Positions 5,499 through 39,999 of a stretch of 64,000 nucleotides of DNA are shown here, in pieces. Source of the stretch: Candidatus Bathyarchaeia archaeon (GTDB taxonomy: Archaea > Thermoproteota > CALKCG01 > B24); NCBI GenBank assembly GCA_038870975.1, contig JAVZJD010000002.1, forward strand, positions 463,626 through 527,625. The letters run 5' to 3'. The notes below the pieces were generated by a model. That model was not told the origin of the DNA. It worked only from the letters and a program-made list of their open reading frames with translations, and searched no databases. Numbering within the stretch: position 1 is the stretch's first letter; each line of letters begins with the position of its first letter. The translations under genes and the position numbers were made by a program.

Positions 5499-7091
5499 AT
5501 GGACTCCAGATACTTAAACTCAAAACCCACCAATTGGACGTCTACAAGGGTTAAAGAGACAGCGGCGTCAAGCGGAATGTGTCCTATATGCATAGAAGAA
5601 TGCCCATTCATATGCGAAATAGCACTCTCTGCTTTCAGAGGTAGAGAAGCATTATATCCCGCACCTTTCCAATTCGGACGTAGTACGGCTGGAGCGGTTA
5701 AAGACTACGGTTTAGACTGGAGCCACTTCAACTTCCACTGTGAAGTTAGAGGTGTGAAAGGTATAGAGGCAGACCCAGATAAAGCACTATTCCCAAATGT
5801 AGACATTGAAACGAACATCGGAGGCATTAAACTTAGAATACCGATTATAAGCGGCGCTTTAGGCTCTACAGCCGTAGCCTCACGCTACTGGAGAAGCGTA
5901 GCAGTCGGATGTGCTCTAACTGGTACACTAATCACAGTCGGTGAAAACGTATGTGGCATGGATCCTGAAGCCGAAATATCACAAGGGAAACTTGTAGAAT
6001 CACCAGACTTAAGGTCTAGGGTTGAAGCCTACAGAGAATTCTGGGATGGAAAATACGGCGGAATAGCTGTTCAAACGAACGTAGAAGACCAAAGGCTTGG
6101 CGTAGATATCTACGCATTGACTAAACTCGAAGTAGATGTTATAGAGCGTAAGTGGGGTCAAGGCGCTAAAGCAATAGGCGGAGAAGTTAGAGTCTACGAC
6201 TTAGACAAAGCGATAATGCTCAAGAGGAGAGGATACTTAGTCATACCTGACCCTGAAGACCCAGAAGTTCAAGCGGCATTCAAAAGCAACTTTATAAAGA
6301 GTTTTGAAAGACACAGCCGCGTAGGAATTACATCTAAAGAAGAGTTTCTCGAAGATGTAGATAGGCTTAGAGAACAGGGTGCAAAACACATAAGCTTAAA
6401 AACAGGAGCCTACAGACCCTCCGCTACGGCTTACACGCTGAAGCTTGCATCTGAAGCAAAAATAGACTATATAACTTTCGACGGATGTGAAGGCGGAACT
6501 GGTATGAGCCCCGTTCCAATGATGGATGAAATGGGCGTCCCAACAGTATACTTGGAGGCGCAGGTCTTAAAGGCCTGTGAAATACTCAAGAAGAAAGGGA
6601 GGTATGTGCCAGACATAGTGATGGCTGGTGGATTCGTAAATGAAACCCAAGTTTTAAAATCCATAGCCTTAGGAAACTTTGGAGAAACTTCCTACGTCAA
6701 AGCCGTGGTTATCGGCAGAGCCATGCTGACGGCAGCTATGAAAGCTGAACATTTCGCCAGATTAGCCAAGGAGAAGAATCTACCAAGACAATTTACAACC
6801 ATATACGGTGAAGAACCTGAGAAATTCTACCCATTCCTTCCGGAGCTTAAAGAATCCCTCGGAAATAGAATAAGTCGAGTACCTTGGGGTGCACTAGGAG
6901 TATACGGATATATGGAGAGAATGCGAGTAGGACTCCAACAGCTTTTAGCTGGTATGCGTAAATTTAAATTAAGCCTAGTTTCAAGAGAAGACCTATTCGC
7001 TTTAACTGAAAGGGCGGCTAAAGCCACAGGCATACCATTAGCTGAAGAATCTGAATCCGGAGAAATGGAAGCCATACTTTTAGACGATTAA
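5499..7091 (+). CDS. FMN-binding glutamate-synthase-like (GltB domain 2 family) protein
   Basis: 530 aa; N-terminal Cys cluster CPICIEECPFIC followed by a barrel-like region with DGCEGGTGMSP; family assignment by eye. Confidence 0.5.
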   Translation: MDSRYLNSKPTNWTSTRVKETAASSGMCPICIEECPFICEIALSAFRGREALYPAPFQFGRSTAGAVKDYGLDWSHFNFHCEVRGVKGIEADPDKALFPNVDIETNIGGIKLRIPIISGALGSTAVASRYWRSVAVGCALTGTLITVGENVCGMDPEAEISQGKLVESPDLRSRVEAYREFWDGKYGGIAVQTNVEDQRLGVDIYALTKLEVDVIERKWGQGAKAIGGEVRVYDLDKAIMLKRRGYLVIPDPEDPEVQAAFKSNFIKSFERHSRVGITSKEEFLEDVDRLREQGAKHISLKTGAYRPSATAYTLKLASEAKIDYITFDGCEGGTGMSPVPMMDEMGVPTVYLEAQVLKACEILKKKGRYVPDIVMAGGFVNETQVLKSIALGNFGETSYVKAVVIGRAMLTAAMKAEHFARLAKEKNLPRQFTTIYGEEPEKFYPFLPELKESLGNRISRVPWGALGVYGYMERMRVGLQQLLAGMRKFKLSLVSREDLFALTERAAKATGIPLAEESESGEMEAILLDD

Positions 7092-7119
7092 ACAACACAT
7101 TTAAAAAGAAAAAGAGGAC

Positions 7120-14692: not shown

Positions 14693-15664
14693 CTAAACAT
14701 TTAAAGCTAAAGCCCTCTTCAAACCATTATATCTATTGCGGATAGTAACCTCTGTAACGTTAGCTGCTTCAGCCACCTCCTTCTGAGTCTTCTTCTCCTT
14801 CTCCAAAGTACACGCCATATATAGAGCTGCAGCCGCTAAACCCATTGGGTCTTTACCTGAAGCTGCTTTCAACTCTTGAGCCTTCCTAAGAATATCTATG
14901 GCCAACTGTTGACACTTCTCACTTACATCTATCTTAGAGGCTATTTTTGACACGCATTTAATCGGGTCAGCTATAGGCATCACTATGTCAAGCTCTTTAA
15001 GCAGAAGCCTATAACATCGAGCTATGTCCTTCTTAGGAATTATACTGACTTCTGCGACCTCTTTAAGAGTCCTAGGCGTCTCCGTCTGCCGGCAAGCAGC
15101 ATACAATGCTGCAGCAGCTATAGCGGCTATACTCCTGCCTCGAACTAAACCTTTATCTAAAGCCTTCCTATAGATTAAGGCGGCCTTCTCTTTAACGAGT
15201 GGAGGGATGTGAAGTTTATCCGATAGTCTGTCGAGCTCAGCCATCGCTTGGCTAAGGTTACGTTCAATGGAGGAGTGAACTCTACTCCTTATCTGCCAAC
15301 GTCTAAGTCTAAGCATTCTAAGCCTCATATCCAGCGGCAGTTCATGTCCAAATGCATCTCTATTAATCCTAGTTATAACAGTAGATAGGCCCTTATCATG
15401 GACAGAGTAAGATATAGGTATACCTACTCTAGCTCTCTCCTCTCTCTCCTCTTGCGTAAAAGCCCTCCACTCTGGACCCTGATCCATAAGCTGACTGCTT
15501 ATCACAAGCCCACAAGCTCTACAGACTGTTTCACCCTTCTCATAGTCTATGACGACATCTGAACTCCCACATTCCGGGCAAACTTCAACTTTAGAAGACG
15601 ATTTTTTAGTCTTTTCACTAGATGAATCATCTAAGCTACTTCTTTTGATGTCGACAGCACTCAT
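14693..15664 (-). CDS. tfb: transcription initiation factor IIB (TFB)
   Basis: 323 aa; N-terminal zinc ribbon CPECGS...CRACG and two cyclin-like repeats. Confidence 0.9.
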   Translation of the reverse strand: MSAVDIKRSSLDDSSSEKTKKSSSKVEVCPECGSSDVVIDYEKGETVCRACGLVISSQLMDQGPEWRAFTQEEREERARVGIPISYSVHDKGLSTVITRINRDAFGHELPLDMRLRMLRLRRWQIRSRVHSSIERNLSQAMAELDRLSDKLHIPPLVKEKAALIYRKALDKGLVRGRSIAAIAAAALYAACRQTETPRTLKEVAEVSIIPKKDIARCYRLLLKELDIVMPIADPIKCVSKIASKIDVSEKCQQLAIDILRKAQELKAASGKDPMGLAAAALYMACTLEKEKKTQKEVAEAANVTEVTIRNRYNGLKRALALNV

Positions 15665-15844
15665 AGGACCTTCCTCATAGGGATGATAACTCCTCCAAGC
15701 CGTTTAACCTAGAAGGAGGAGCCACATTTCTCGCGTAGAAAAATTGATTTAAAAAAGTTATATATAAGCTTTATCATTTTGTGATGGTTTAAAATTAGAA
15801 AAACTTAAAACATAAGAAGCTACAAAAGTATAAAATGGAAGCAA

Positions 15845-15959
15845 GCGGGGGTTGCCGAGTCAGGACAAAGGCGCAGGACTTAAGATCTCAAAAGTAAAAG
15901 GGTCTAGATTGGAAATCCTGTGGCGTAGGCCTTCGTGGGTTCGAATCCCACCCCCCGCA
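15845..15959 (+). tRNA. tRNA-Leu (anticodon UAA) with ~30-nt intron in the anticodon loop
   Basis: Acceptor GCGGGGG/CCCCCGC plus discriminator A, T-arm GTGGGTTCGAATCCCAC, long variable arm, anticodon stem CAGGA/TCCTG separated by CTTAAG plus a ~30-nt insert. Confidence 0.7.
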
Positions 15960-16325
15960 CTAAAATTCAGTTACTAATTTTATTTTGCTCTTAAACTAGA
16001 AATCCTACCAGTTCAATTAGAGTAAATGCAACTTTGAAGTCGAATAGCATCGACTTCATAAATATGATCTATCCCTATTAGAGGTGAAGCTTTAGTACTT
16101 ATTGAAGTTAAAAAGAGAAGTTGCCTCAACGTTTTTAAACATACCAATCTTACAGTTTCACCTGCAAAGTCTTAAGAATCTATAAGGATTCCTATTAACT
16201 AGACATCTTCTCCACAAATTTCAAAATTACAAAAAATGTGTTGAATTTCTTAATTGGTATTTCAGCTAATATTTTACAACCTTTAACGCTTTAAGGTGGA
16301 TATCCACTCGTATCTCGTGCTAACC

Positions 16326-16748
16326 TTACATGGAAGTAATACCATGTTTGGCTCGTTCTATCATGATGCAAACGCCATATACTACGTCAATACCGTTCTC
16401 CTTGCAAAATTTGATGGCTTTTTCCGACTCCGAACCTGGTTGCATCCAAACTTTTGTGATTCCAAGTCTTTTGCAAGTTTCAACTATGTGCTCTGTCACT
16501 TTCGGAGGAACCACGACATCAACAACATCTGGTTTTACGGGCAAGCTTTCGAGGTCTGGATAACATTTATCACCTAGGATTTCCTGTGCATTTGGATTTA
16601 CCGCATAGACTTTGTATCCCGCATTTTTCAAGTCTTTATACACTTGGTAACCATATTTTTTGGGATCGCGACTTACACCAACAACGGCGAAGATATTTCT
16701 TTTGTCTAGAAAAGACCTTATTAATTCTTGTTCACTCACATCCCACAT
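16326..16748 (-). CDS. CoA-binding domain protein
   Basis: 140 aa; IFAVVGVSRDPKKYGYQVYKDL...VYAVNP pattern of YccU-like CoA-binding proteins. Confidence 0.7.
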   Translation of the reverse strand: MWDVSEQELIRSFLDKRNIFAVVGVSRDPKKYGYQVYKDLKNAGYKVYAVNPNAQEILGDKCYPDLESLPVKPDVVDVVVPPKVTEHIVETCKRLGITKVWMQPGSESEKAIKFCKENGIDVVYGVCIMIERAKHGITSM

Positions 16749-16855
16749 TTAAACTCTCACTCTCATTTAATTTTTACATACGAATTATTGATGCTCAGGA
16801 ATAATAAAACTGAAATACTGTTGAAGATTCTTAGAAAATATTGGGGAGAAAATTT

Positions 16856-19027
16856 ATGGAAAAATTAGAAGTTGAGAAAATTATTTCGCAAATGACTTTA
16901 GAGGAGAAGGCTAGGTCTGTTGTGGGTGTGGGATTACCCAGTTTATTCGGAAACCCACATTCACGGGTTCAGGGAGCCGCTGGTGAAACCCACCCAATAC
17001 CTAGGCTTGGAATTCCATCAGCCGTTTTATCGGATGGACCAGCTGGTCTTAGAATAAACCCTACGAGGGAGGGGGATGAGAAAACCTATCACGCTACGGC
17101 TTTTCCGATTGAAACCATGCTAGCTTCAACCTGGAATAGAGAGGTTTTAGAAGAGGTTGGAAGAGCTATTGGAGAAGAAGTTAGAGAGTATGGTGTAGAT
17201 ATCCTCCTCGCACCTGCTATGAATATCCACAGGAATCCACTCTGCGGTAGAAACTTTGAGTACTATTCAGAGGATCCTCTACTTACGGGTGAAATGGCGG
17301 CCTCCTTTGTAAGAGGTGTTCAATCCCAGGGGGTAGGCGCCTGTTTAAAGCACTTCGCCGCTAACAATCAAGAAACGAACCGTATGATAATCGACACTAT
17401 TGTTTCAGAGAGAGCTTTAAGAGAAATCTATCTTAAGGGTTTTGAAATAGCCGTTAAAAAGTCGAAGCCTTGGGCTATAATGAGTGCATATAATAGGCTA
17501 AATGGCAAATACTGCTCACAGAATCAATGGCTTTTAACAAAGGTTTTAAGAGAAGAATGGGGCTTCGAAGGATTCGTAATGACGGATTGGTATGCAGGTG
17601 ACGACCCGGTTGAGCAGATGAACGCTGGAAATGACCTCATAATGCCTGGTAAAGCCTATCAGATAAACCCGAAGAGGAAAGATGAAGTTGAAGAGATCGT
17701 AAATGCGGTTAAAGATGGGAGATTAAACGAAGAGGTATTAAATAGAAACGTTAAGAGTGTTCTGAGGGTTCTCTTAAACTCACCATCTTTTAAAGGGTAT
17801 GAATATACGAATAAACCAGACCTTGAAGGACATGCAAAGATCGCCTATAGAGCTGGTGTTGAGGGGGCGGTACTACTTAAAAATGATAATGCATTACCAA
17901 TTAGAGAAGGCGCTAGAATAGCCATATTCGGGGTTGGACAGATAGAGACAGTTAAGGGTGGAACAGGAAGCGGTGACACTCATCCAAGGTATGTCATATC
18001 CATACTTGAAGGCTTAAAGGAGAAGAATCTCAAAATCGATGAGGAATTGGCGAAAGTCTATGAAGACTATATTAGAGAAATGAGGGGGAAAGAAGAATAT
18101 AAGATTAGAAGAACGTTCTTTGGAACCCCCATAGTGCCTAAACTTCCAGAAGACTTCTTAAGCATAGAAAGCTTAGAAGAAGTTGCAAGTAGGAATGACG
18201 TGGGAGTAATTGTGATCAGTAGAATATCAGGTGAAGGCTACGATAGAAAACCTGACAAGGGAGACTTCTACCTTAGTGATGATGAATATAGACTAATAGA
18301 GAAGGTTTCTCAAGCATTCCGAGCAAGAGGTAAAAAAGTAATAGTTCTATTGAACATAGGTGGGCCAATAGAGGTTGTCAGTTGGAGAAGCCTAGTAGAT
18401 GGGATCCTAGTCGTATGGCAGGCTGGTCAGGAAGCTGGAAGAATAATAGCAGACCTACTTATTGGAAAGGTTAATCCCTCTGGGAAGCTTCCAACAACCT
18501 TCCCAAAAAACTACCTAGACATCCCATCGTGGAACTTCCCGGGAGAACCAAAGGACAACCCTCGTAAGGTTGTCTACGATGAAGGAATATACGTTGGCTA
18601 TAGATACTACGACACTTTCAACGTGGAGCCAGCTTATGAATTTGGCTTTGGACTTTCATATACGACATTTGACTATAGAGACCTTAAAATAATGAAGACG
18701 GAAAACTCTGTAAAAATCTCCTTTACGATTGTAAATAGCGGTAAATTCCCCGGGAAAGAAGTTGCACAAGTCTACGTAAGAGCACCTAAGGGAGCTATAG
18801 ATAAACCCCTCCAGGAGCTGAAGGGTTTCCATAAGACAAGACTTCTAAACCCAGGTGAGTCGGAAAACGTAGAGGTTGAAATTGATCTAAGAGAACTCTC
18901 AAGCTTTAACTGTGGAAGATGGCTATTGGAAAAAGGCGAATACGAAGTAAGAGCTGGAGCTTCCTCAAGAGACATCAGGTTGACTGGTATCTTCACTATA
19001 GATAAGGAGGAAAAATATTATCCGTAA
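16856..19027 (+). CDS. glycoside hydrolase family 3 beta-glucosidase
   Basis: GH3 domain motifs (KHFAANNQE, VMTDW, GEGYDR); GGGGAG precedes ATG 16856 (track start is TTG 16841). Confidence 0.85.
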   Translation: MEKLEVEKIISQMTLEEKARSVVGVGLPSLFGNPHSRVQGAAGETHPIPRLGIPSAVLSDGPAGLRINPTREGDEKTYHATAFPIETMLASTWNREVLEEVGRAIGEEVREYGVDILLAPAMNIHRNPLCGRNFEYYSEDPLLTGEMAASFVRGVQSQGVGACLKHFAANNQETNRMIIDTIVSERALREIYLKGFEIAVKKSKPWAIMSAYNRLNGKYCSQNQWLLTKVLREEWGFEGFVMTDWYAGDDPVEQMNAGNDLIMPGKAYQINPKRKDEVEEIVNAVKDGRLNEEVLNRNVKSVLRVLLNSPSFKGYEYTNKPDLEGHAKIAYRAGVEGAVLLKNDNALPIREGARIAIFGVGQIETVKGGTGSGDTHPRYVISILEGLKEKNLKIDEELAKVYEDYIREMRGKEEYKIRRTFFGTPIVPKLPEDFLSIESLEEVASRNDVGVIVISRISGEGYDRKPDKGDFYLSDDEYRLIEKVSQAFRARGKKVIVLLNIGGPIEVVSWRSLVDGILVVWQAGQEAGRIIADLLIGKVNPSGKLPTTFPKNYLDIPSWNFPGEPKDNPRKVVYDEGIYVGYRYYDTFNVEPAYEFGFGLSYTTFDYRDLKIMKTENSVKISFTIVNSGKFPGKEVAQVYVRAPKGAIDKPLQELKGFHKTRLLNPGESENVEVEIDLRELSSFNCGRWLLEKGEYEVRAGASSRDIRLTGIFTIDKEEKYYP

Positions 19028-24615: not shown

Positions 24616-24755
24616 AAAGACTCCACATTAATGCTCAACGTTAATCCTCATAAAATTTATCACATGTCTTCTTCACCTAGAAGAACCCCAATGGAATAAC
24701 TTCACACTTCTCTGAGTATAGGTAGATACGAGACACTGCGAACTTCAACTTTTAT

Positions 24756-25181
24756 TTACATAGGAAAGAGTTTAGCTAAAGAGGACTCATTAGAATTAAA
24801 CCGCCAACCATTTAATTCTTCAAGAAGAGTTACTCTGGTTATATTTCCACAACTCCTTTTCATTTGACGGCCAGCTGTGACTAATTGCACGTTCAATTTC
24901 TTTGCGAGGTATACGTAAGTTGAATCGTACACAGTCAATTTTGCCGTAGCAACTATGCTTAAGATCTCAACTGAATCCTCCCATTCAATAGATTTAATAC
25001 TAAAGCCTATATATTTCAATGCTTCCAGCGCCTCCATACCATCGGAAAGCTTTAAAATACCTCTAGAAAACGCTCTCAGAATAACTTGTTCTTCCTAAGG
25101 GTCTCCTGGAATGATCCATTTAGCCACTACACTAGCATCTATAACTATTCTAAGCTTTTCTCTCTGTCCTCCCTTATCCAC
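24756..25181 (-). pseudogene. VapC-like PIN-domain gene interrupted by an in-frame TAG (25095-25097) and with Gly at the last catalytic Asp position
   Basis: Same frame reads ...KLRIVIDASVVAKWIIPGDP-TAG-EEQVILRAFSRG...MEALEAL...LTVYDSTYVYLAKKLNVQLVTAGRQ; only the post-TAG part appears in the ORF track. Confidence 0.5.
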
Positions 25182-25390
25182 TTTACAATCTCCTTCGTAG
25201 ATACTTCACCAGATCTCCTACGAATCTCATCCAATTTTTCAGCAACCTCCTTAGCAATCTCCTCTCTAATCTTCGCTTCAATGATCCGCCTAAGATATTC
25301 ACTCTAATTCACGTTAACTCTTTTTATTAATCTCCTTACCTCTTCAGGGACTTTGACAGATACATTAACAAGCCTACTCAAAAGGCTCAC
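25145..25390 (-). pseudogene. VapB-like antitoxin gene interrupted by an in-frame TAG (25304-25306)
   Basis: Frame reads (GTG)SLLSRLVNVSVKVPEEVRRLIKRVNVN-TAG-SEYLRRIIEAKIREEIAKEVAEKLDEIRRRSGEVSTKEIVKWIREDREKSLE; 3' end overlaps the vapC-like start. Confidence 0.4.
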
Positions 25391-25479
25391 CAAATGGTAA
25401 TCTCAATAGAGGTTACTATCTTAAAATTACTAAAGAGGGGGGAAAACGCAGAATTATATCAGTAGTTACAAATTTGACT

Positions 25480-32006: not shown

Positions 32007-32081
32007 GGGCCGGTAGTTCAGCCTGGTATGAATACCTGGCTCGCACCCGGGTGGTCGCGGGTTCAAATCCCGCCCGGTCCA
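32007..32081 (+). tRNA. tRNA-Ala (anticodon CGC)
   Basis: Cloverleaf: acceptor GGGCCGG/CCGGTCC with G3:U70 Ala identity pair, anticodon loop CTCGCAC, T-arm GCGGGTTCAAATCCCGC, followed by T5. Confidence 0.85.
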
Positions 32082-33635: not shown

Positions 33636-33869
33636 TTATCCATTGTTTACAGCCAGCCATTGTATACGTGACCATTGTGAGAAGATATTTACTATAGTAC
33701 CAGCCCCTCGTAGAACATGCTTCCAAATTAAAACTGTAGGCAATTCAACGGGTTGTTCGTGGAGTTTAACTTTTCCAATTTCAAAAACACTATGTGCTTT
33801 TCCAAACTTAACAAGTAATTCCATAATCACCAAACTCTATTTAGGAAAATGCGAAAAACTTTTATCGGA
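33636..33869 (-). pseudogene. decayed duplicate of the promoter and first ~55 codons of the mtrH-like gene
   Basis: 33703-33869 aligns to 39324-39492 at about 80% identity; encodes ...FEIGKVKLHEQPVELPTVLI then frameshifts relative to MtrH. Confidence 0.55.
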
Positions 33870-34126
33870 AGATTTCCATTCCTCTTCATTTGAATTCTAG
33901 AAGACCACCTTGCTTCCTCCATCGGTATTAATACAGTCGAGTATAAGCTCTACAAAGCGTGCAATGCTTAGACTCCTGCTATCCGCCTCAGCCTTAAGCT
34001 TTTAAAATTTCACATTTTTCGATTTTCAACACGCTTTTTTTAAGCTTTTATCTTTTTCAGCTCCTTTACCGTTTGATTTATGCATTCTTCGAATCCCCTC
34101 CCAGCCAAGTGGAAGCCGCCTAAAAC

Positions 34127-34192
34127 CGCGTAAACTGCTTCTACGCGTGTAAGTTGCTACGCGTAAAGTATTGTGTTTACTACGCCACGTGG
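34127..34192. repeat. three degenerate tandem units with a CGCGT core
   Basis: CGCGTAAACTGCTTCTA / CGCGTGTAAGTTGCTA / CGCGTAAAGTATTGTGTTTACTA in otherwise AT-rich non-coding DNA. Confidence 0.4.
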
Positions 34193-34441
34193 ACTACTTC
34201 CTAACATTGAACAATATGCTGTGAGCCGCGCCTCTGTCAAAGACGCGAACAAGCATTGAGAAGCATGTTCAGCAATAGGGTAGTGGAAAGCCTTCTCTAC
34301 TCAATCTCTGAAGTCTTTAACCTTCTTACTTGAAGAAGTTGATAAGAGGTCTATGGAATTATCCATGAGACTGATTATCTCTACTCTTTCAGCCTCTCTA
34401 AGCTTTAAAAACTGATTATTTCCTTTCATAGAAGATATTCT

Positions 34442-35041
34442 TTACAGTGTTCCCCTATAATAGATTGTTGCTGGACAGCCGACGCACTTCCCGTCAACGT
34501 ATCTTGCACATGGCTTACAGTCGACCTTACACGGTGCGATACTCCCCCTTCTACTGGCGAGACATTCTCTCACCAGGAGGAATTGTGAAAAGTATATATT
34601 GCTCACTGGGTAAAATTCCGACCTTCTCACACCAGCACCACTTCTGATAGAGCATTTCTCAATAGAGATGCTTTCAAGAGTATTCTGATCCTCAGCGACA
34701 ACAATGGCTATCAAATTATATCCGCCTAAAGTCTTAAATATTTGGACAACTCTCGGACAATATCTAAATCTGTCGAGAAGATTTTGCATCGCCTCAGCAC
34801 TCTCCATCTCAAGTAGAACTATTGCTGTGAAAAGTCTGAAATAGAAGGGGTTTATTAGCGCCAATACTCTAATAGCATCTTGCTCAATAAGCTTCTGAAG
34901 CCTCTTCCTAACCCCCATACTAGTATATTCTGTGACCTCTGCAAGCTCTCCTAATGTTGCTCTCCCATTCAATTGAAGCTTTGAAATAATCTTCCTATCG
35001 ATATCATCCAAGGCTTCCACCTCAGTTTTATTTCTAAACAT
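34442..35041 (-). CDS. Lrp/AsnC-family transcriptional regulator with C-terminal Cys-cluster extension
   Basis: 199 aa; HTH IDRKIISKLQLNGRATLGELAEVTEYTSMGVRKRLQKL, RAM-like middle, C-terminal CKVDCKPCARYVDGKCVGCP. Confidence 0.6.
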   Translation of the reverse strand: MFRNKTEVEALDDIDRKIISKLQLNGRATLGELAEVTEYTSMGVRKRLQKLIEQDAIRVLALINPFYFRLFTAIVLLEMESAEAMQNLLDRFRYCPRVVQIFKTLGGYNLIAIVVAEDQNTLESISIEKCSIRSGAGVRRSEFYPVSNIYFSQFLLVRECLASRRGSIAPCKVDCKPCARYVDGKCVGCPATIYYRGTL

Positions 35042-35044
35042 AAA

Positions 35045-35056
35045 CTATTTAAATAG
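35045..35056. promoter_or_regulatory. perfect 12-bp palindrome CTATTTAAATAG in the divergent promoter between the Lrp-like regulator and the mrp-led operon
   Basis: Self-complementary; located in the 50-bp intergenic region 35042-35091. Confidence 0.4.
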
Positions 35057-35091
35057 CTTATATATTAAACTTTTCAACAGGCAGTTGTGAT

Positions 35092-35937
35092 ATGAACAAC
35101 GAAGTAGAGACAGCAGATAAAGAGAGGACACAGATTGAAGAGCAGGAGCAAATATTAAAGTTTAGAATGGGGAAGATAAAACATAAAATTGCCGTCATAA
35201 GCGGTAAGGGTGGTGTTGGTAAGAGCATGGTTACTGTAAACCTTGCAGTTGCATTTGCAATACGTGGACACATCGATAAAGTTGGAATTCTAGATGCTGA
35301 TATTCACGGTCCAAGCATACCGAAAATGCTGGGGTTAAGCGGTCAAAGACTTCAAGCCGGGCCACCAGGAGTTTTCCCAGCTACCAGCCCCCTGGGGATT
35401 AAGGTTGTTTCAATGGGTTTTCTCCTACCAGATGAAAATACTCCCATCATCTGGCGTGGGCCACTAAAGATGACGGCTATACGACAATTCCTATCAGATG
35501 TTGTTTGGGGTGAACTCGACTTACTGCTGATAGATTTACCACCTGGAACTGGCGATGAGTCTCTGAGCGTAGCACAACTACTGCCAGAGATGGATGGGGT
35601 TGTAATCGTCACAATTCCATCTGAGGTTTCTCAGATAGTTGTTAAAAAGGCAGTTAATTTCGCTAAAAAGCTTGGCCTGCCAGTTATAGGTGTAATTGAA
35701 AACATGAGCGGCTTTATATGTCCAAACTGCGGAGCGAAGATTGACATATTCCGGTCTGGCGGTGGAAAGAAAATAGCTGAGGAAATGGATGTGCCATTCC
35801 TTGGAAGCATACCGGTAGACCAAGAGATATGTGAATCCTCCGATAAAGGCATACCATTCATAGCTGAGCATAAGGATTCACCAGCATCAAAAGCCTTCAT
35901 GGAGATTGTCCAGAGAATCGAGCAAATACTAGAGTAG
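35092..35937 (+). CDS. Mrp/ApbC/NBP35-family iron-sulfur cluster carrier ATPase
   Basis: 281 aa; deviant Walker [15 protein letters not shown] and CPNCG cluster-ligand motif. Confidence 0.85.
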
Positions 35938-36060
35938 AGCGAGGTTTGCGAAATCCTAGGTGGAGGTGTAGTCTAAGATGGAGATGTTAGTTGAAAAATA
36001 TATGAAAATTGGAAACTTACGTGTAAAAATCAAGTTTATAGTTATAAGGGAGGTGTAAGA

Positions 36061-36435
36061 TTGGTGGAGAGAATAATCATACCTACTGAAGATGGAAGTG
36101 GGCTTAATGCCAGATTATCTGAACATTTCGGAAGAGCACCATACTTCATCGTAGTTGATCTAGATGAGGATAATAACATTTTGAACGTTCAAGCAGTGCT
36201 AAACACGGGTGAGCACTTCGGTGGAATAGGTCGACCAGCCGATAACATACTGCGGCTTAGACCTAACGCTGTAATCACCTATGGTATGGGTCCACGAGCA
36301 CTAAGTATATTCCAGAACGCTAGAGTTGCTGTGCTGAAGGCTAATGCGAATACTCTCAGGGATGTTATTGAAGCATATAAGCAGGGTGTTCTTAAGGAAC
36401 TCACGGAAGGCTGTCGCTACACCCGCCACAGATAA
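36061..36435 (+). CDS. NifX/NafY-like dinitrogenase FeMo-cofactor-binding-domain protein (Nitro_FeMo-Co family)
   Basis: 124 aa; HFGRAPYFIVVDL and ITYGMGPRA pattern. Confidence 0.7.
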   Translation: MVERIIIPTEDGSGLNARLSEHFGRAPYFIVVDLDEDNNILNVQAVLNTGEHFGGIGRPADNILRLRPNAVITYGMGPRALSIFQNARVAVLKANANTLRDVIEAYKQGVLKELTEGCRYTRHR

Positions 36436-36504
36436 ACAATTACAGGTTAACAGCGGTATAATGTAAACTCTTTAGTCAAGAAGAATGGACGTGAAGCCTC
36501 CTCT

Positions 36505-36798
36505 ATGATATCATTAATTGCTAGTGGTAAAGGCGGAACTGGGAAGACCTCACTCGTAGCTAACATAACCATTTCAGTAAGAGATGACATTCAGATACTG
36601 GATTGCGATGTCGAAGAGTCAAACATACATTTACTTCTACATCCTAAAATAGTCAGCGAGAAAACAGTTTACAATACAATCACCTTTGATCTAAATGTTA
36701 CTGAGGCGATAGTTAATGGAAAAACGATCATAGAATATTCTCCGGAAACTGATGCCTTAAAGGAAATAGAAAGAGTATGGGAAGGATTCTCAGCATAA
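36505..36798 (+). CDS. MinD/CooC-like P-loop ATPase reduced to a 97-aa stub
   Basis: ASGKGGTGKTS P-loop and DCDVEESN motif, but the central region present in full-length family members is missing. Confidence 0.5.
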   Translation: MISLIASGKGGTGKTSLVANITISVRDDIQILDCDVEESNIHLLLHPKIVSEKTVYNTITFDLNVTEAIVNGKTIIEYSPETDALKEIERVWEGFSA

Positions 36799-36840
36799 TT
36801 GGACTTCCTAGAAATAAAAGTTGCTGAGGGGAAACAGTAA

Positions 36841-37530
36841 ATGGTGTCACTAGTATTTGGTCCTGTCCCATCTAGACGTTTAGGGAGAAGTCTAGGGATA
36901 AATAACGTCCCATATAAGACGTGCACATACTCATGCGTCTACTGTCAACTGGGGAAGACAACAAACATGTTTGTTAAAAGACGATGCTTCTATAAACCAG
37001 AGGATATCTTAATAGCGGTTGAAAACAAAGTTAAGGAAATCCTTTCAAAGGGTGAGAGGATAGATTATTTAACTTTTGCCCCAGATGGCGAGCCAACTCT
37101 GGATATTAATATTGGAAGAGGAATATCGCTCGTAAAGCAGATAGACCTCCCAGTAGCAGTAATAACCAATGCTTCCCTACTCTGGAATCGTAGGGTGAGA
37201 GAGAGTCTGCTGGAAGCTGACTTTGTCTCATTAAAGGTTGATGCAGTCAGCCAAGACTTATGGCGGGTGTTGAATAGACCACATAAAAGCCTACAGTTGA
37301 ATGATGTTTTAGAAGGCGTAAGAAAGTTTACAGAAACATTTGAGGGGACAATCATAACCGAAACAATGCTTATCGACGGCATAAAATACGACGAGGAGTT
37401 TAAGCGAATAGCAGACTTTCTTGGAAAACTAGACAAATTAAATACTGCTTATATTGCAGTACCCACAAGACCACCTGCAGAAAAGTGGGTTAAGCCAGCT
37501 AGAAAAGAAGCCTTAAATGAGGCATTTTAA
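36841..37530 (+). CDS. radical SAM enzyme, small (229 aa), family unassigned
   Basis: CTYSCVYC (Cx3Cx2C) cluster motif; N-terminal GPVPSRRLGRSLGIN. Confidence 0.7.
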   Translation: MVSLVFGPVPSRRLGRSLGINNVPYKTCTYSCVYCQLGKTTNMFVKRRCFYKPEDILIAVENKVKEILSKGERIDYLTFAPDGEPTLDINIGRGISLVKQIDLPVAVITNASLLWNRRVRESLLEADFVSLKVDAVSQDLWRVLNRPHKSLQLNDVLEGVRKFTETFEGTIITETMLIDGIKYDEEFKRIADFLGKLDKLNTAYIAVPTRPPAEKWVKPARKEALNEAF

Positions 37531-37569
37531 GCCTTCTCCAAGATACTTGGAAGCTATAGGGTAAAATTC

Positions 37570-37788
37570 TTGGTAGAGTATGAAAAGAATGATTTCACTT
37601 TAACGGGAAAAATTGAAGATGACATACTCAGCATAGCTGCCGTACATCCAATACGTAAAGAAGTGATAGTAAGTCTTCTAAAAAGGGTTGGAGCAGACTG
37701 GCAAATCTTAGAAAAACTTCTTCAAGAAGGTAAACTGATAAAACTCAAATATGGTGGAAATGAATACTATAGGAGCAAACTTAGGTAA
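37570..37788 (+). CDS. hypothetical protein (72 aa), last gene of the cassette
   Basis: ORF only; no motif recognised. Confidence 0.25.
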   Translation: MVEYEKNDFTLTGKIEDDILSIAAVHPIRKEVIVSLLKRVGADWQILEKLLQEGKLIKLKYGGNEYYRSKLR

Positions 37789-37942
37789 GAAAACTTGAAA
37801 GACTTTACACTATATATCTGTTAATAGAGTAGAAGTGTCCACTCTTTTAATTTTCCTGTTTCTAATGTTGTTACACCGATAAGTACCTTATCTATGACGT
37901 CTGAGACAAGTACTGGCACTATTTCACTTCTCCCCTCCAGCT

Positions 37943-38171
37943 CTATTCATATTCTTGGTCTCTCAAGATTGATCTTCCAGCACCACTCTCCGCAATGGAT
38001 CTACTAGTCGCCTTAAGATCGAGAAACGTAGCTATCTTGCGTGGTATAATTGTAAGCGTAGCGCTAGTATCAACTAAGGCGTTAACCTCAACGAGTCTAA
38101 CGCAACTTTCATCAGCTATTTCAGCCGGGGCCCAACATGACCCAAAAATAATCCCTAAACTTAAACCTCAT
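37943..38171 (-). pseudogene. retropepsin-like aspartyl protease gene fragment, frameshifted
   Basis: Minus-strand frame encodes ...CVRLVEVNALVDTSATLTIIPRKIATFLDLK (DTG-like active-site block) without a start codon; an ATG at 38171 opens a 17-codon ORF in another frame. Confidence 0.35.
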
Positions 38172-38517
38172 GGTGTTTAAATTCTTCCTTAGGCAATTTT
38201 CAAGTTTCCAGGATTATTGTAAAGGTGTTCTCTGCTATTTTAGTCCCATTCCTCTTTGCCAATATAATGTATAAGGAATGTATATAGCTATGCTCCGTTT
38301 AGAGGATATTTTAAATGCTCAATCTATGGTTTCGCTGAACACTCTCATTTTCCTCCTTAACCCATTCTGGAACATTAACGCTCACCGCAGTCATTAACCA
38401 TCAACATGAGTTTCGATACAAATTCAATAAAACCCCTAGTGGTAAACCATCGTTTAAGACGCCTAAAAATATTGACTAGCTTCTCCCAGAAGCTAAGTAA
38501 AATTTCCCTATCCAAAT

Positions 38518-39435
38518 CTAAATCATCCTATACAACGGATGATTTTTAACTAGCGGCTTTATCCCTATGCTTCTTGCATGGTAAGCGACTATTGCATCGA
38601 TCATTGCACAGATGGGAAAGATATGCTTAGCTTTTGCAATAGAGCCGTAAATAATAAAGTTTGCTCCCATGGTTTGAGCGAGAGCTAAAGCCCCACCTCT
38701 ACACGCTATCTTCACGTTTTCTTCTAAACCTTTAGTTTTACTCCATTTCCCCACAGCGCCTATCGGCGCTGTTCCAGTCGGCATGCCAAATTCTTCCTTA
38801 GCTAGATAGATGCCTCGAGCCGCAAAGCCTATGCTTGGAACGTCTAAAACCAGCATGAAGATTAAGGGCTTCTCTATGCCAGCTTTTAAAGCTCTAGCAA
38901 CCAACCCCTCTTCTTCAGCAGATCCTTTAAGAATTTGGATCATACCAGCTGGATATGGATTTCTAGGATTAAAGGCCTGGATAATAGCGGCCTTTAGCTT
39001 TACCCCTCTAATGGCTTCGACCTCCTCTCTACTTAACGTATAGTTTATGGAGTTATAGACAGCTCTCTCCTGAAGCCCCACTTCTCTCACATAATTTGCC
39101 GCTCCAATTCTTATGGACGCGTTAGATCCATTTATTAGGAATGGGCTGTCAGTAACGTTTGATACGAATTCAATGTACTTTATGAGAGCTATAGAGTTTT
39201 CTCCAACCACGTCAAGCATACAAGGAACACCTGTTTTCTCAGACAGCTCTTCTTGAACAAGTATCAGTCTTTCAGCCTCTCTTCTATTGAAGAGCCCTGA
39301 AGACTTATCTTGAACTATCCTATGCCCCTCGTGGAATATACTTCCAATTAAAACTGTAGGCAATTCTCCAGGTTGCCCGCCGACTTTAACTTTTCCAATT
39401 TCAAAAATACTCTGCGTTTTTTCAAACTTAAACAA
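38518..39435 (-). CDS. mtrH: MtrH-family methyltransferase (tetrahydromethanopterin S-methyltransferase subunit H-like)
   Basis: 305 aa; N-terminus (TTG start) FKFEKTQSIFEIGKVKVGGQPGELPTVLIGSIF and overall colinearity with MtrH. Confidence 0.75.
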   Translation of the reverse strand: MFKFEKTQSIFEIGKVKVGGQPGELPTVLIGSIFHEGHRIVQDKSSGLFNRREAERLILVQEELSEKTGVPCMLDVVGENSIALIKYIEFVSNVTDSPFLINGSNASIRIGAANYVREVGLQERAVYNSINYTLSREEVEAIRGVKLKAAIIQAFNPRNPYPAGMIQILKGSAEEEGLVARALKAGIEKPLIFMLVLDVPSIGFAARGIYLAKEEFGMPTGTAPIGAVGKWSKTKGLEENVKIACRGGALALAQTMGANFIIYGSIAKAKHIFPICAMIDAIVAYHARSIGIKPLVKNHPLYRMI

Positions 39436-39513
39436 GCAATTCCACCATCAACTAGACTCTATTTAGGAGAGCTACTAAAAACTTTTATCGGAGGAGTATG
39501 AAGCTGATATCTA

Positions 39514-39999
39514 ATGAAGAAATTAAAGCATTCCTTTAAAGTCGGCATGAGTTTTGGTTTAACTTCAGGGATAATTACAACGCTCGGTTTAATAGTCGGC
39601 CTCCACTCTGGCACACATTCGAAGCTTGCAGTTATAGGAGGGATATTAACTATAGCAATAGCCGATGCGTTCTCCGACGCGCTTGGAATACACATGTCTG
39701 AAGAGTCAGAGGCGAGACACAGCTCGAAGGAAATTTGGGAGTCTACAGCTTCAACCTTCCTATTTAAATTCACATTTGCTTTAACATTTATAATTCCAGT
39801 AATAACACTTGATTTGACTACGGCTATAATTGCGAGTGTAATCTGGGGTATCATCCTCATTGGATTCTTCAGCTACATTATCGCTAGAGAACAAAAAGAG
39901 AATCCTTGGAACACTGTCATTGAACATTTGATCATAGTAGTTGTAGTCGTAATAATCGCACATTTAATAGGAGACTGCATCGCCTCCATATTCGGTTAA
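39514..39999 (+). CDS. VIT1/CCC1-family membrane transporter domain protein
   Basis: 161 aa; AIADAFSDALG motif and several hydrophobic helices. Confidence 0.65.
   Translation: MKKLKHSFKVGMSFGLTSGIITTLGLIVGLHSGTHSKLAVIGGILTIAIADAFSDALGIHMSEESEARHSSKEIWESTASTFLFKFTFALTFIIPVITLDLTTAIIASVIWGIILIGFFSYIIAREQKENPWNTVIEHLIIVVVVVIIAHLIGDCIASIFG

Follow-up and report, generated by a model that had tools for sequence, protein, structure and literature searches.

Do the genes at positions 34442-37788 of a 64-kb window of a Bathyarchaeia contig (the window being the whole stretch of DNA that was analysed) form a working line for metallocofactor assembly, and which enzyme would such a line serve? A preliminary description had seen here five co-directional genes divergent from an Lrp/AsnC-type regulator: an Mrp-type Fe-S carrier ATPase, a NifX-like protein, a MinD-like stub of 97 aa, a small radical S-adenosylmethionine (SAM) enzyme and a 72-aa open reading frame (ORF). 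Together they were taken for a minimal maturation module. We hold, with a probability of about 0.8, that the locus is a partly eroded copy of an operon conserved in anaerobes, the archaeal counterpart of the Desulfovibrio ORP/MrpORP cluster with IssA-like members. Only the regulator, Mrp and one NifX-like protein are still intact in the window. Three of the five operon ORFs, those of 97, 229 and 72 aa, are pseudogene products. Another NifX-like gene (NifX-1), IscU and DUF1847 are gone, and a gene for a metallo-beta-lactamase-fold (MBL) protein is fragmentary.

All six ORFs were found where they had been described. Proteins of the locus were searched against Pfam and NCBIfam profiles, which upheld the assignments to Lrp/AsnC, Mrp/NBP35, Nitro_FeMo-Co, the CbiA/MinD N-terminus and Radical_SAM. 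The count of five separate operon genes was not sustained. By single-frame translation the 72-aa ORF (37570-37788) is in frame with 36841-37530, with one TAA between them; it had no family hit of its own in the profile search and is the C-terminus of the radical SAM protein. The read-through protein is covered over 99-100% by thousands of homologs, 314-341 aa long. Residue conservation was read from alignments of ten and of 53 homologs. The TAA at 37528-37530 replaces a Gln which is found in all of the ten and is nearly invariant in the 53. On the DNA level the codon is CAA in five of five relatives checked; therefore a single C>T change has made the stop. An identical version of the 229-aa product is annotated in a Candidatus Bathyarchaeia metagenome-assembled genome (MAG), and it was read on six contigs of different length (NCBI and Logan). 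Therefore, the lesions are not assembly noise. The one locus displayed among these six contigs, from GCA_038884135.1, has a gene order identical to that of the window. The ratio of nonsynonymous to synonymous substitution rates (dN/dS), determined for the window against the related locus L088 (L numbers denote fetched loci of related genomes), was 0.23-0.25 for the radical SAM gene and 0.23 for its C-terminal part. This indicates an evolution which is relaxed yet not neutral and fits a recent inactivation.

The origin of the 97-aa ORF was traced by tblastn with intact proteins of relatives, as were the other pseudogene fragments. In L005 two MinD-ferredoxin ATPase genes, A and B, stand in tandem. 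The first part of the ORF (36505-36684) corresponds to residues 1-60 of gene A (70% identity) and its last part (36667-36780), in frame, to residues 200-237 of gene B (61% identity). Comparison with L009 confirmed this chimeric structure. About 1.4 kb is deleted within the stub, including both ferredoxin inserts and Walker B, and the P-loop and the extreme C-terminus are kept. The intact genes of relatives encode 277-310 aa; the profile hit of the stub, to the CbiA/MinD N-terminus, was under most cut-offs. As judged from these alignments, the 97-aa ORF is the product of a pseudogene. That it might be a conserved mini-protein was considered and rejected, a sister lineage having retained a different piece of 56 aa.

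What the locus once contained can be read from relatives. In the intact cluster an MBL gene stands downstream of the Cys-tailed Lrp gene, and on the other side of the divergent promoter the order is Mrp, a NifX-like gene with an IssA-like Gly/Arg tail, a further NifX-like gene, NifU_N/IscU, in some cases DUF1847, two MinD-ferredoxin genes and the radical SAM gene. This full arrangement was present in L006, L007, L009, L011, L012, L092 and L093. Frequent additional neighbours are DUF134, DUF5320, a third NifX-like gene, VIT1 and FeoAB or DtxR.

Closer relatives of the window have decayed as well, each in its own manner. L004/L005, with an Lrp 79% identical to that of the window, retain the whole operon minus IscU and DUF1847 and have one frameshift in MinD-ferredoxin gene A (6267-7108; split into 185 aa and 108 aa), seen in two independent assemblies (ENA and JGI). 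This looks like an earlier stage of the decay in the window. L087/L088 (Lrp 88%, DNA about 90% identical) share the aIF5B-S6e-VIT1-MtrH context and have kept NifX-1, not NifX-2. Only a 56-aa tail of MinD-ferredoxin B is left there; a short duplication near residue 174 breaks the radical SAM gene by a frameshift, and Gln230 is intact. In L089 (Lrp 80-83%) we found Lrp, Mrp and a radical SAM remnant across three frames; in L090/L091 (Lrp 82-83%) NifX is truncated and the radical SAM gene reduced to an inverted piece of 72 aa, beside Lrp and Mrp. Going by these alignments, the lesions are independent between lineages, and Lrp and Mrp are the sole parts always kept.

To which family does the radical SAM protein belong? 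It has the CxxxCxxC motif with C28, C32 and C35 invariant, and no other Cys is invariant among the 53 homologs. Its GPVPSRRLGRSLGI N-terminus, thought to be unusual in the preliminary description, turned out to be the near-invariant signature of a very large radical SAM family. No specific NCBIfam family or equivalog model recognised the protein; the best was the viperin model with about 40 bits against a cut-off of 180 bits. A sequence search of the PDB with the read-through protein gave no hit at E <= 1. The AlphaFold2 (AF2) model had a mean confidence (pLDDT) of 67.7, with the N-terminal 50 residues unmodelled, and showed a partial barrel, then helices and a beta-hairpin towards the C-terminus. 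The C-terminal part can be read as winged-helix-like in this model. Foldseek comparison of the model with the PDB returned DesII, NifB, Mmp10, LipA and viperin about equally (TM-score 0.44-0.49), i.e. generic barrels. NifB identity was rejected, as there are no extra Cys/His ligands for K-clusters and no hit by a NifB model. Identity with TYW1/Taw1, suggested by the JGI label 'wyosine synthetase', was likewise rejected: auxiliary-cluster Cys and a TYW1 hit were absent and the TYW1 structure ranked 37th among the fold matches. We take this label to be an inherited COG-level name; the tests done here did not support it. Literature searches for COG0731 together with radical SAM found no papers, those for DUF1847, DUF134, DUF5320 and COG1149 nothing about this cluster, and the combination of Nitro_FeMo-Co, radical SAM and MinD only irrelevant items. 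By sequence, the protein belongs to a very widespread family without a characterised member.

The genomic neighbourhood of this family was then informative. A scan with one genome per species gave at least 594 relatives, 45-64% identical, from many archaeal and bacterial phyla; 80 loci were kept and genes within 8 kb of the radical SAM gene were counted. MinD-ferredoxin genes were present in about 30 of the 80 loci, usually two of them, directly upstream and co-directional. NifX-like genes were near in 27 and Mrp in 24. Where the upstream flank extended over 5 kb or more, one or several MinD-ferredoxin genes were present, namely in 14 of 19 loci from archaea and in 12 of 32 from bacteria. Methanothrix is one of the hosts of the cluster (L050, L078). 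MinD-ferredoxin genes are few per genome, and chance adjacency would amount to a few percent at most. The synteny is real. The preliminary description would have been abandoned had the radical SAM protein fallen into a characterised family of unrelated role and had synteny been lacking; we found no characterised family, and the synteny is conserved. The homolog nearest to the radical SAM protein of the window (71%), in L001/L002 (7186-8948), stands alone beside an Mbh/complex-I-like membrane hydrogenase cluster. Therefore, the association with ORP-like genes is frequent, not obligatory.

The regulator is an Lrp/AsnC protein with an N-terminal helix-turn-helix (HTH) and a RAM domain, both above cut-off (PF13404, 36 bits; PF01037, 28 bits). 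At E <= 1e-10 its family numbers more than 1500 proteins, of which 120 were listed; these share 67-88% identity, and all listed homologs with a named source are from Bathyarchaeia or Bathyarchaeota. The Cys cluster at the C-terminus, CKVDCKPCARYVDGKCVGCP, is present as described before, with a spacing of C-x3-C-x2-C-x7-C-x2-C. In 50 homologs C95, C130, C171, C175, C178, C186 and C189 are invariant, the last five being those of the tail. In 13 of 13 loci the divergent Mrp gene adjoins the Cys-tailed Lrp gene, which with a dN/dS of 0.12 is well preserved in the window. From the annotated start the protein has 199 aa; a TTG at 35011 gives 189 aa, the length annotated for most homologs. Most likely, as far as sequence comparison goes, this TTG is the start because the upstream ATG runs into a TAA four codons on in L089, L092 and L093. 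Codons 1-10 of the longer version (35012-35041) overlap a DNA block, ATGTTTAGAAAwAAAC, which is kept even in these three loci where it contains the stop. The block is thus probably 5' untranslated or promoter DNA rather than coding, i.e. regulatory DNA. It also follows from the TTG start that the gap between Lrp and Mrp is about 80 bp and not the 50 bp given earlier.

A perfect 12-bp palindrome, CTATTTAAATAG, is indeed located in the shared promoter at 35045-35056. By itself it is not significant: 42 of 100 shuffles yielded at least one match with at most one mismatch. In 12 of 13 related loci, however, the extended element, AAAsTAT-N4/5-ATAsyTT, stands beside the regulator gene, and in this form the palindrome is a conserved feature. 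Across 1.12 Mb of fetched loci a relaxed motif had 13 occurrences, of which 11 adjoined the regulator gene; it was also seen in L092 and L093, which were examined in addition. The intergenic DNA between Lrp and Mrp can be aligned between genomes whose proteins are just 60-80% identical. The centre of the inverted repeat is about 40 nt from each start codon, the TTG of Lrp and the start codon of Mrp, hence about midway. From its conservation and position we infer a putative bidirectional promoter and operator.

Mrp carries a deviant Walker A motif, GKGGVGKS, and a CPNC motif; it is intact in every related locus and has a dN/dS of 0.15. It matched the MrpORP model NF041136 with 352 bits over profile positions 2-249 of 365, which is under the 450-bit cut-off. 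NifX-2, as a separate gene, matched positions 266-363 of the same model. It is 74% identical to the product of L005 5840-6211 and ends in EGCRYTRHR, without a Gly/Arg-rich tail. Such a cationic tail is at the end of NifX-1 in intact relatives (L009 4190-4597). NifX-1 itself is present in L005, L009 and L087 and deleted from the window.

How does the cluster compare with known systems? In Desulfovibrio vulgaris the ORP cluster comprises Orp3, Orp4, Orp5, Orp8 and Orp9 (DVU2103-2109); two 4Fe-4S ferredoxin motifs are found in each of Orp3 and Orp4, Orp8 belongs to the Nitro_FeMo-Co proteins and Orp9 is MrpORP (PMC6345978). MrpORP was the best match of the window Mrp. A single-domain Nitro_FeMo-Co protein like Orp8 is present at 36061-36435. 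Like Orp3 and Orp4, the two paralogous MinD-type ATPases of the intact archaeal form have two 4Fe-4S ferredoxin motifs each, and both systems are restricted to anaerobes and organised as divergent regulated operons. In contrast to MrpORP proper, where the Nitro_FeMo-Co (Di-Nase) domain is fused to the C-terminus of Mrp, it is a separate gene here. The regulator is an Lrp/AsnC protein with a Cys tail, whereas Desulfovibrio uses sigma-54 promoters and a cognate activator. Only on the archaeal side does the cluster include IscU, DUF1847, the MBL-fold protein and the radical SAM protein; the text of PMC6345978 names no radical SAM protein. Finally, the Orp3/Orp4 equivalents, present in the seven loci with the full arrangement, are destroyed in the window, and the remaining chimera is devoid of ferredoxin motifs. 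With these differences, the ancestral cluster is a variant of the known ORP/MrpORP kind, plus radical SAM, IscU, DUF1847 and the Lrp(Cys) regulator.

The resemblance to IssA, a thioferrate Fe-S storage protein of Pyrococcus furiosus with a NifX domain and a thioferrate-binding cationic tail at its C-terminus (PMC5524996), consists of the Nitro_FeMo-Co domain (IPR003731), the cationic Gly/Arg tail on NifX-1 of relatives and the frequent neighbours FeoAB, DtxR and VIT1. However, the window has lost the tailed NifX-1 and retained NifX-2 without such a tail; the likeness to the storage protein is one of sequence. With Nif cofactor assembly the intact cluster shares a NifU_N scaffold, a radical SAM protein, NifX-domain carriers and SIMIBI Fe-S ATPases. 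Here the radical SAM protein is without auxiliary-cluster ligands or a fused NifX domain, and the ancestral ATPases are MinD-ferredoxin proteins, not NifH; the NifB/NifH-like maturation module proposed earlier is not supported on these grounds. NifH and NifB models stayed under cut-off in the scanned cluster proteins and no nitrogenase-type gene was among the recurrent neighbours in the 80 loci, NifD/K/E/N not having been specifically searched. The Nif resemblance is best described as an analogy of logic, not family membership. Archaeal metalloregulators of the CopR type combine an Lrp-like HTH with a C-terminal Cys-rich TRASH domain. The regulator is similar in that an archaeal Lrp-type DNA-binding module carries a C-terminal Cys-rich, putatively metal-sensing extension and is encoded beside its target genes. 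It differs in that no TRASH domain was detected and that the Cys spacing is unlike that of TRASH.

These comparisons allow a likely scheme for what is left of the cluster in this genome. The Lrp-type regulator would bind the inverted repeat over the shared TATA element and control its own gene and the Mrp operon. Its five-Cys tail may hold a metal or an Fe-S cluster such that transcription would follow Fe-S or redox status. An Mrp dimer would bridge a [4Fe-4S] cluster on CxxC and hand it to apo-proteins, as MrpORP does in vitro. The NifX-like protein may carry an Fe-S or heterometal species. The distal half, MinD-ferredoxin ATPases and radical SAM protein, is predicted to be nonfunctional in this genome.

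Several points weigh against this interpretation. The radical SAM gene has a dN/dS of about 0.24, much less than 1, which leaves a very recent inactivation or some remaining function. In the regulator a Pfam scan detected no TRASH, YHS-type or other metal-binding domain at E <= 0.01, and the Cys tail had a pLDDT below 50 in the AF2 model, so that the model is uninformative on a metal site; metal or cluster binding by the tail is deduced from its invariant residues. The same holds for the other steps proposed for the archaeal proteins, which are all derived from sequence. Protein complex formation and Fe-S transfer from Mrp to MinD-ferredoxin proteins have been shown only for Desulfovibrio, for MrpORP in vitro (PMC6345978). 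The equation with ORP builds on domain architecture and the below-cut-off MrpORP hit.

Could the ORFs still be functional in spite of the lesions? If all five operated as a split, minimal NifB/NifH-like maturation module for some client, the domain set of Fe-S carrier, NifX domain, SIMIBI P-loop and radical SAM, which recalls Nif cofactor assembly, would be accounted for, and NifB is among the top fold matches of the radical SAM model (E 4.5e-6, TM-score 0.49). We consider this very improbable. The stub is a deletion chimera without Walker B and ferredoxin domain, a nonsense codon occupies a conserved Gln of the radical SAM gene, and sister lineages carry different disabling lesions. Only three Cys are invariant, so ligands for K-clusters are lacking; the NifB fold match ranks equal with the DesII, Mmp10, LipA and viperin barrels, and no nitrogenase-type family was found at cut-off. 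A regulator-linked metallocofactor-assembly cassette, as first described, remains a valid designation for the ancestral cluster; as a working minimal module it fails on the pseudogenes and missing genes. A more limited proposal is that the radical SAM protein alone is functional, either as two polypeptides (229 aa and a 72-aa piece restarted at TTG 37570) or by read-through of the TAA. The frame after the stop is open and conserved, the dN/dS of the C-terminal part is low, a TTG start is available 13 codons past the stop, and in the model the break separates the barrel (about residues 50-245) from the helical/hairpin domain at the C-terminus. Nevertheless, the partner MinD-ferredoxin genes are destroyed and the clade sheds the gene: in L087/L088 it is broken within the barrel, and little of it is left in L089 and L090. 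Recoding of TAA is not known in archaea. Thus we regard a split or read-through protein as unlikely.

Even less probable than a functional module is that the lesions are assembly or sequencing artefacts, the cluster being intact in the organism itself. The sequence comes from a MAG, and single-base errors occur; but six contigs agree on the 229-aa product, the gene order recurs in GCA_038884135.1, base-calling errors do not account for deletions of 1.4 kb and 0.4 kb or for the fragmentary MBL DNA, and related genomes share the trend with different lesions. Equally hard to credit is the mtrH-like methyltransferase gene as the client of the cassette, the nearest candidate in the preliminary description. 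It adjoins the cassette here, in L004/L005 and in L087/L088, and its 5' end is, as had been reported, duplicated on both cassette sides. Yet this adjacency is confined to close relatives: mtrH was within 8 kb of the radical SAM gene in none of the 80 species-level loci and is missing from the intact clusters of L092 and L093. In L087/L088 a toxin-antitoxin pair and a protease gene intervene, and mtrH is under purifying selection (dN/dS 0.14) while the cassette decays. An eroded ORP-type operon accordingly remains the preferred explanation.

If mtrH is not the client, which enzyme might have been? In relatives cdhA (carbon monoxide dehydrogenase/acetyl-CoA synthase alpha subunit; TIGR00314, 1178 bits) is located inside the operon after Mrp, in L007 (2584-4932) and L012 (351-4166). 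The L012 operon also holds a gene for a NiFe-hydrogenase large subunit, recognised by its RxEGHG and DPCxxCxxH motifs. In L014 an identical 18-bp operator, AAAGTATTAATATAGTTT, is about 40 bp upstream of cdhA (15219-16942). As a lead from three loci, none of them in the window, cdhA is a better candidate client than mtrH and a possible member of the same regulon. Possibly the intact cluster is a dedicated line for assembly or insertion of a complex metallocluster in anaerobes, with the radical SAM protein as obligate partner of the Orp3/Orp4-type ATPases and Ni-Fe-S enzymes as clients in Bathyarchaeia. We put this forward as a tentative idea, on balance rather doubtful.

The flanks of the cassette have decayed too. 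Coding density is 0.55-0.62 at 32-40 kb compared to 0.84 for the whole window. The positions of all features are collected below.

Table. Features of the cassette region and its flanks (window positions).
Feature	Position	Strand	Basis and remarks
MBL-fold pseudogene remnant	34043-34420	-	two fragments downstream of the regulator (tblastn)
Lrp/AsnC regulator, intact	34442-35041	-	HTH_AsnC + AsnC_trans_reg; 5-Cys tail
Conserved inverted repeat AAAsTAT-N4-ATAsyTT	35042-35059		TATA-like core; putative operator and bidirectional promoter element
Mrp/NBP35 (ApbC-type) Fe-S carrier ATPase, intact	35092-35937	+	PF10609 1e-99, 333 bits
Single-domain Nitro_FeMo-Co protein NifX-2 (NifX/Orp8-like), intact	36061-36435	+	PF02579 7e-16, 58.7 bits
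Chimera left by an in-frame deletion across two tandem MinD-ferredoxin ATPase genes (Orp3/Orp4-like)	36505-36798	+	tblastn
Radical SAM gene with internal nonsense codon, 72-aa ORF included	36841-37788	+	PF04055 7e-14; internal TAA
Retropepsin-like aspartic protease pseudogene, outside the cassette	37824-38146	-	tblastn with intact L087 and L090 proteins
RHH (ribbon-helix-helix) antitoxin scrap	38322-38394	-	between radical SAM gene and mtrH
MtrH-family methyltransferase, intact	38518-39435	-	PF02007 2e-83

The MBL remnant matches a 317-aa protein of L004/L005 only at residues 3-111 (38%) and 229-279 (69%), and no ORF is left; the gene is intact in L005, L006, L007, L090, L092 and L093. The retropepsin-like pseudogene has a frameshift, an internal stop and a 9-residue deletion. 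At this position L087/L088 have an intact protease gene and an RHH-PIN toxin-antitoxin pair. The duplication at mtrH comprises about 110 bp of the gene and about 60 bp upstream (39324-39495 versus 33703-33872), with 83-95% identity in blocks. The second copy, 5.6 kb away beside the MBL remnant, is absent from the sister lineage L087. Probably it is a relic of an old paralog or of a segmental duplication. Nothing supported a mobile element bounded by these repeats: window composition is uniform, the copies are only about 85% identical and no integrase was found among the scanned proteins.

The neighbourhood is iron-related. A VIT1-family iron transporter gene is near the cassette (39514-39999, plus strand), encoding 161 aa in the window and in L088; in L092 (3154-4023) a version of 289 aa is directly 3' of the radical SAM gene. 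On the flanks of the cluster, FeoAB and DtxR genes were seen in L004/L005, L011, L017 and L043. Compared with L088 (34442-42259), synonymous divergence (dS) was 0.27-0.44 for Lrp, Mrp, radical SAM and MtrH and 0.81-0.96 for the adjacent VIT1, S6e and aIF5B. The lower values could be due to recombination between lineages or to an effect of codon usage. Elsewhere in the window, a PIN-domain gene remnant with an internal stop (24825-25145, minus strand) was seen in a low-coding gap (24616-25479). An Rfam scan of the window identified just two tRNAs, at 15845-15959 and 32007-32081, both on the plus strand, and nothing in the gaps of the cassette. The first spans 115 nt compared to a model of 71 positions and probably contains an intron.

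For annotation the consequence is immediate: three called "genes" of this locus are pseudogene fragments. Beyond this, the data provide three leads on the function of ORP-type clusters, with their MinD-ferredoxin ATPases, NifX-domain proteins and Mrp, in anaerobes. In archaeal and bacterial phyla alike, an uncharacterised, highly conserved radical SAM family recurs with the MinD-ferredoxin pair and is mostly encoded right next to it. The Bathyarchaeia Lrp with its invariant five-Cys tail and palindromic operator is a candidate archaeal Fe-S or metal sensor. The independent, graded loss of distal genes, with Lrp and Mrp always kept, points to a core as opposed to a dispensable module. Should the intact cluster be an assembly line for complex metalloclusters, the decay in this clade would be a natural knockout series, in which the radical SAM protein became dispensable after loss of the ATPases, and Lrp and Mrp would have an independent role.

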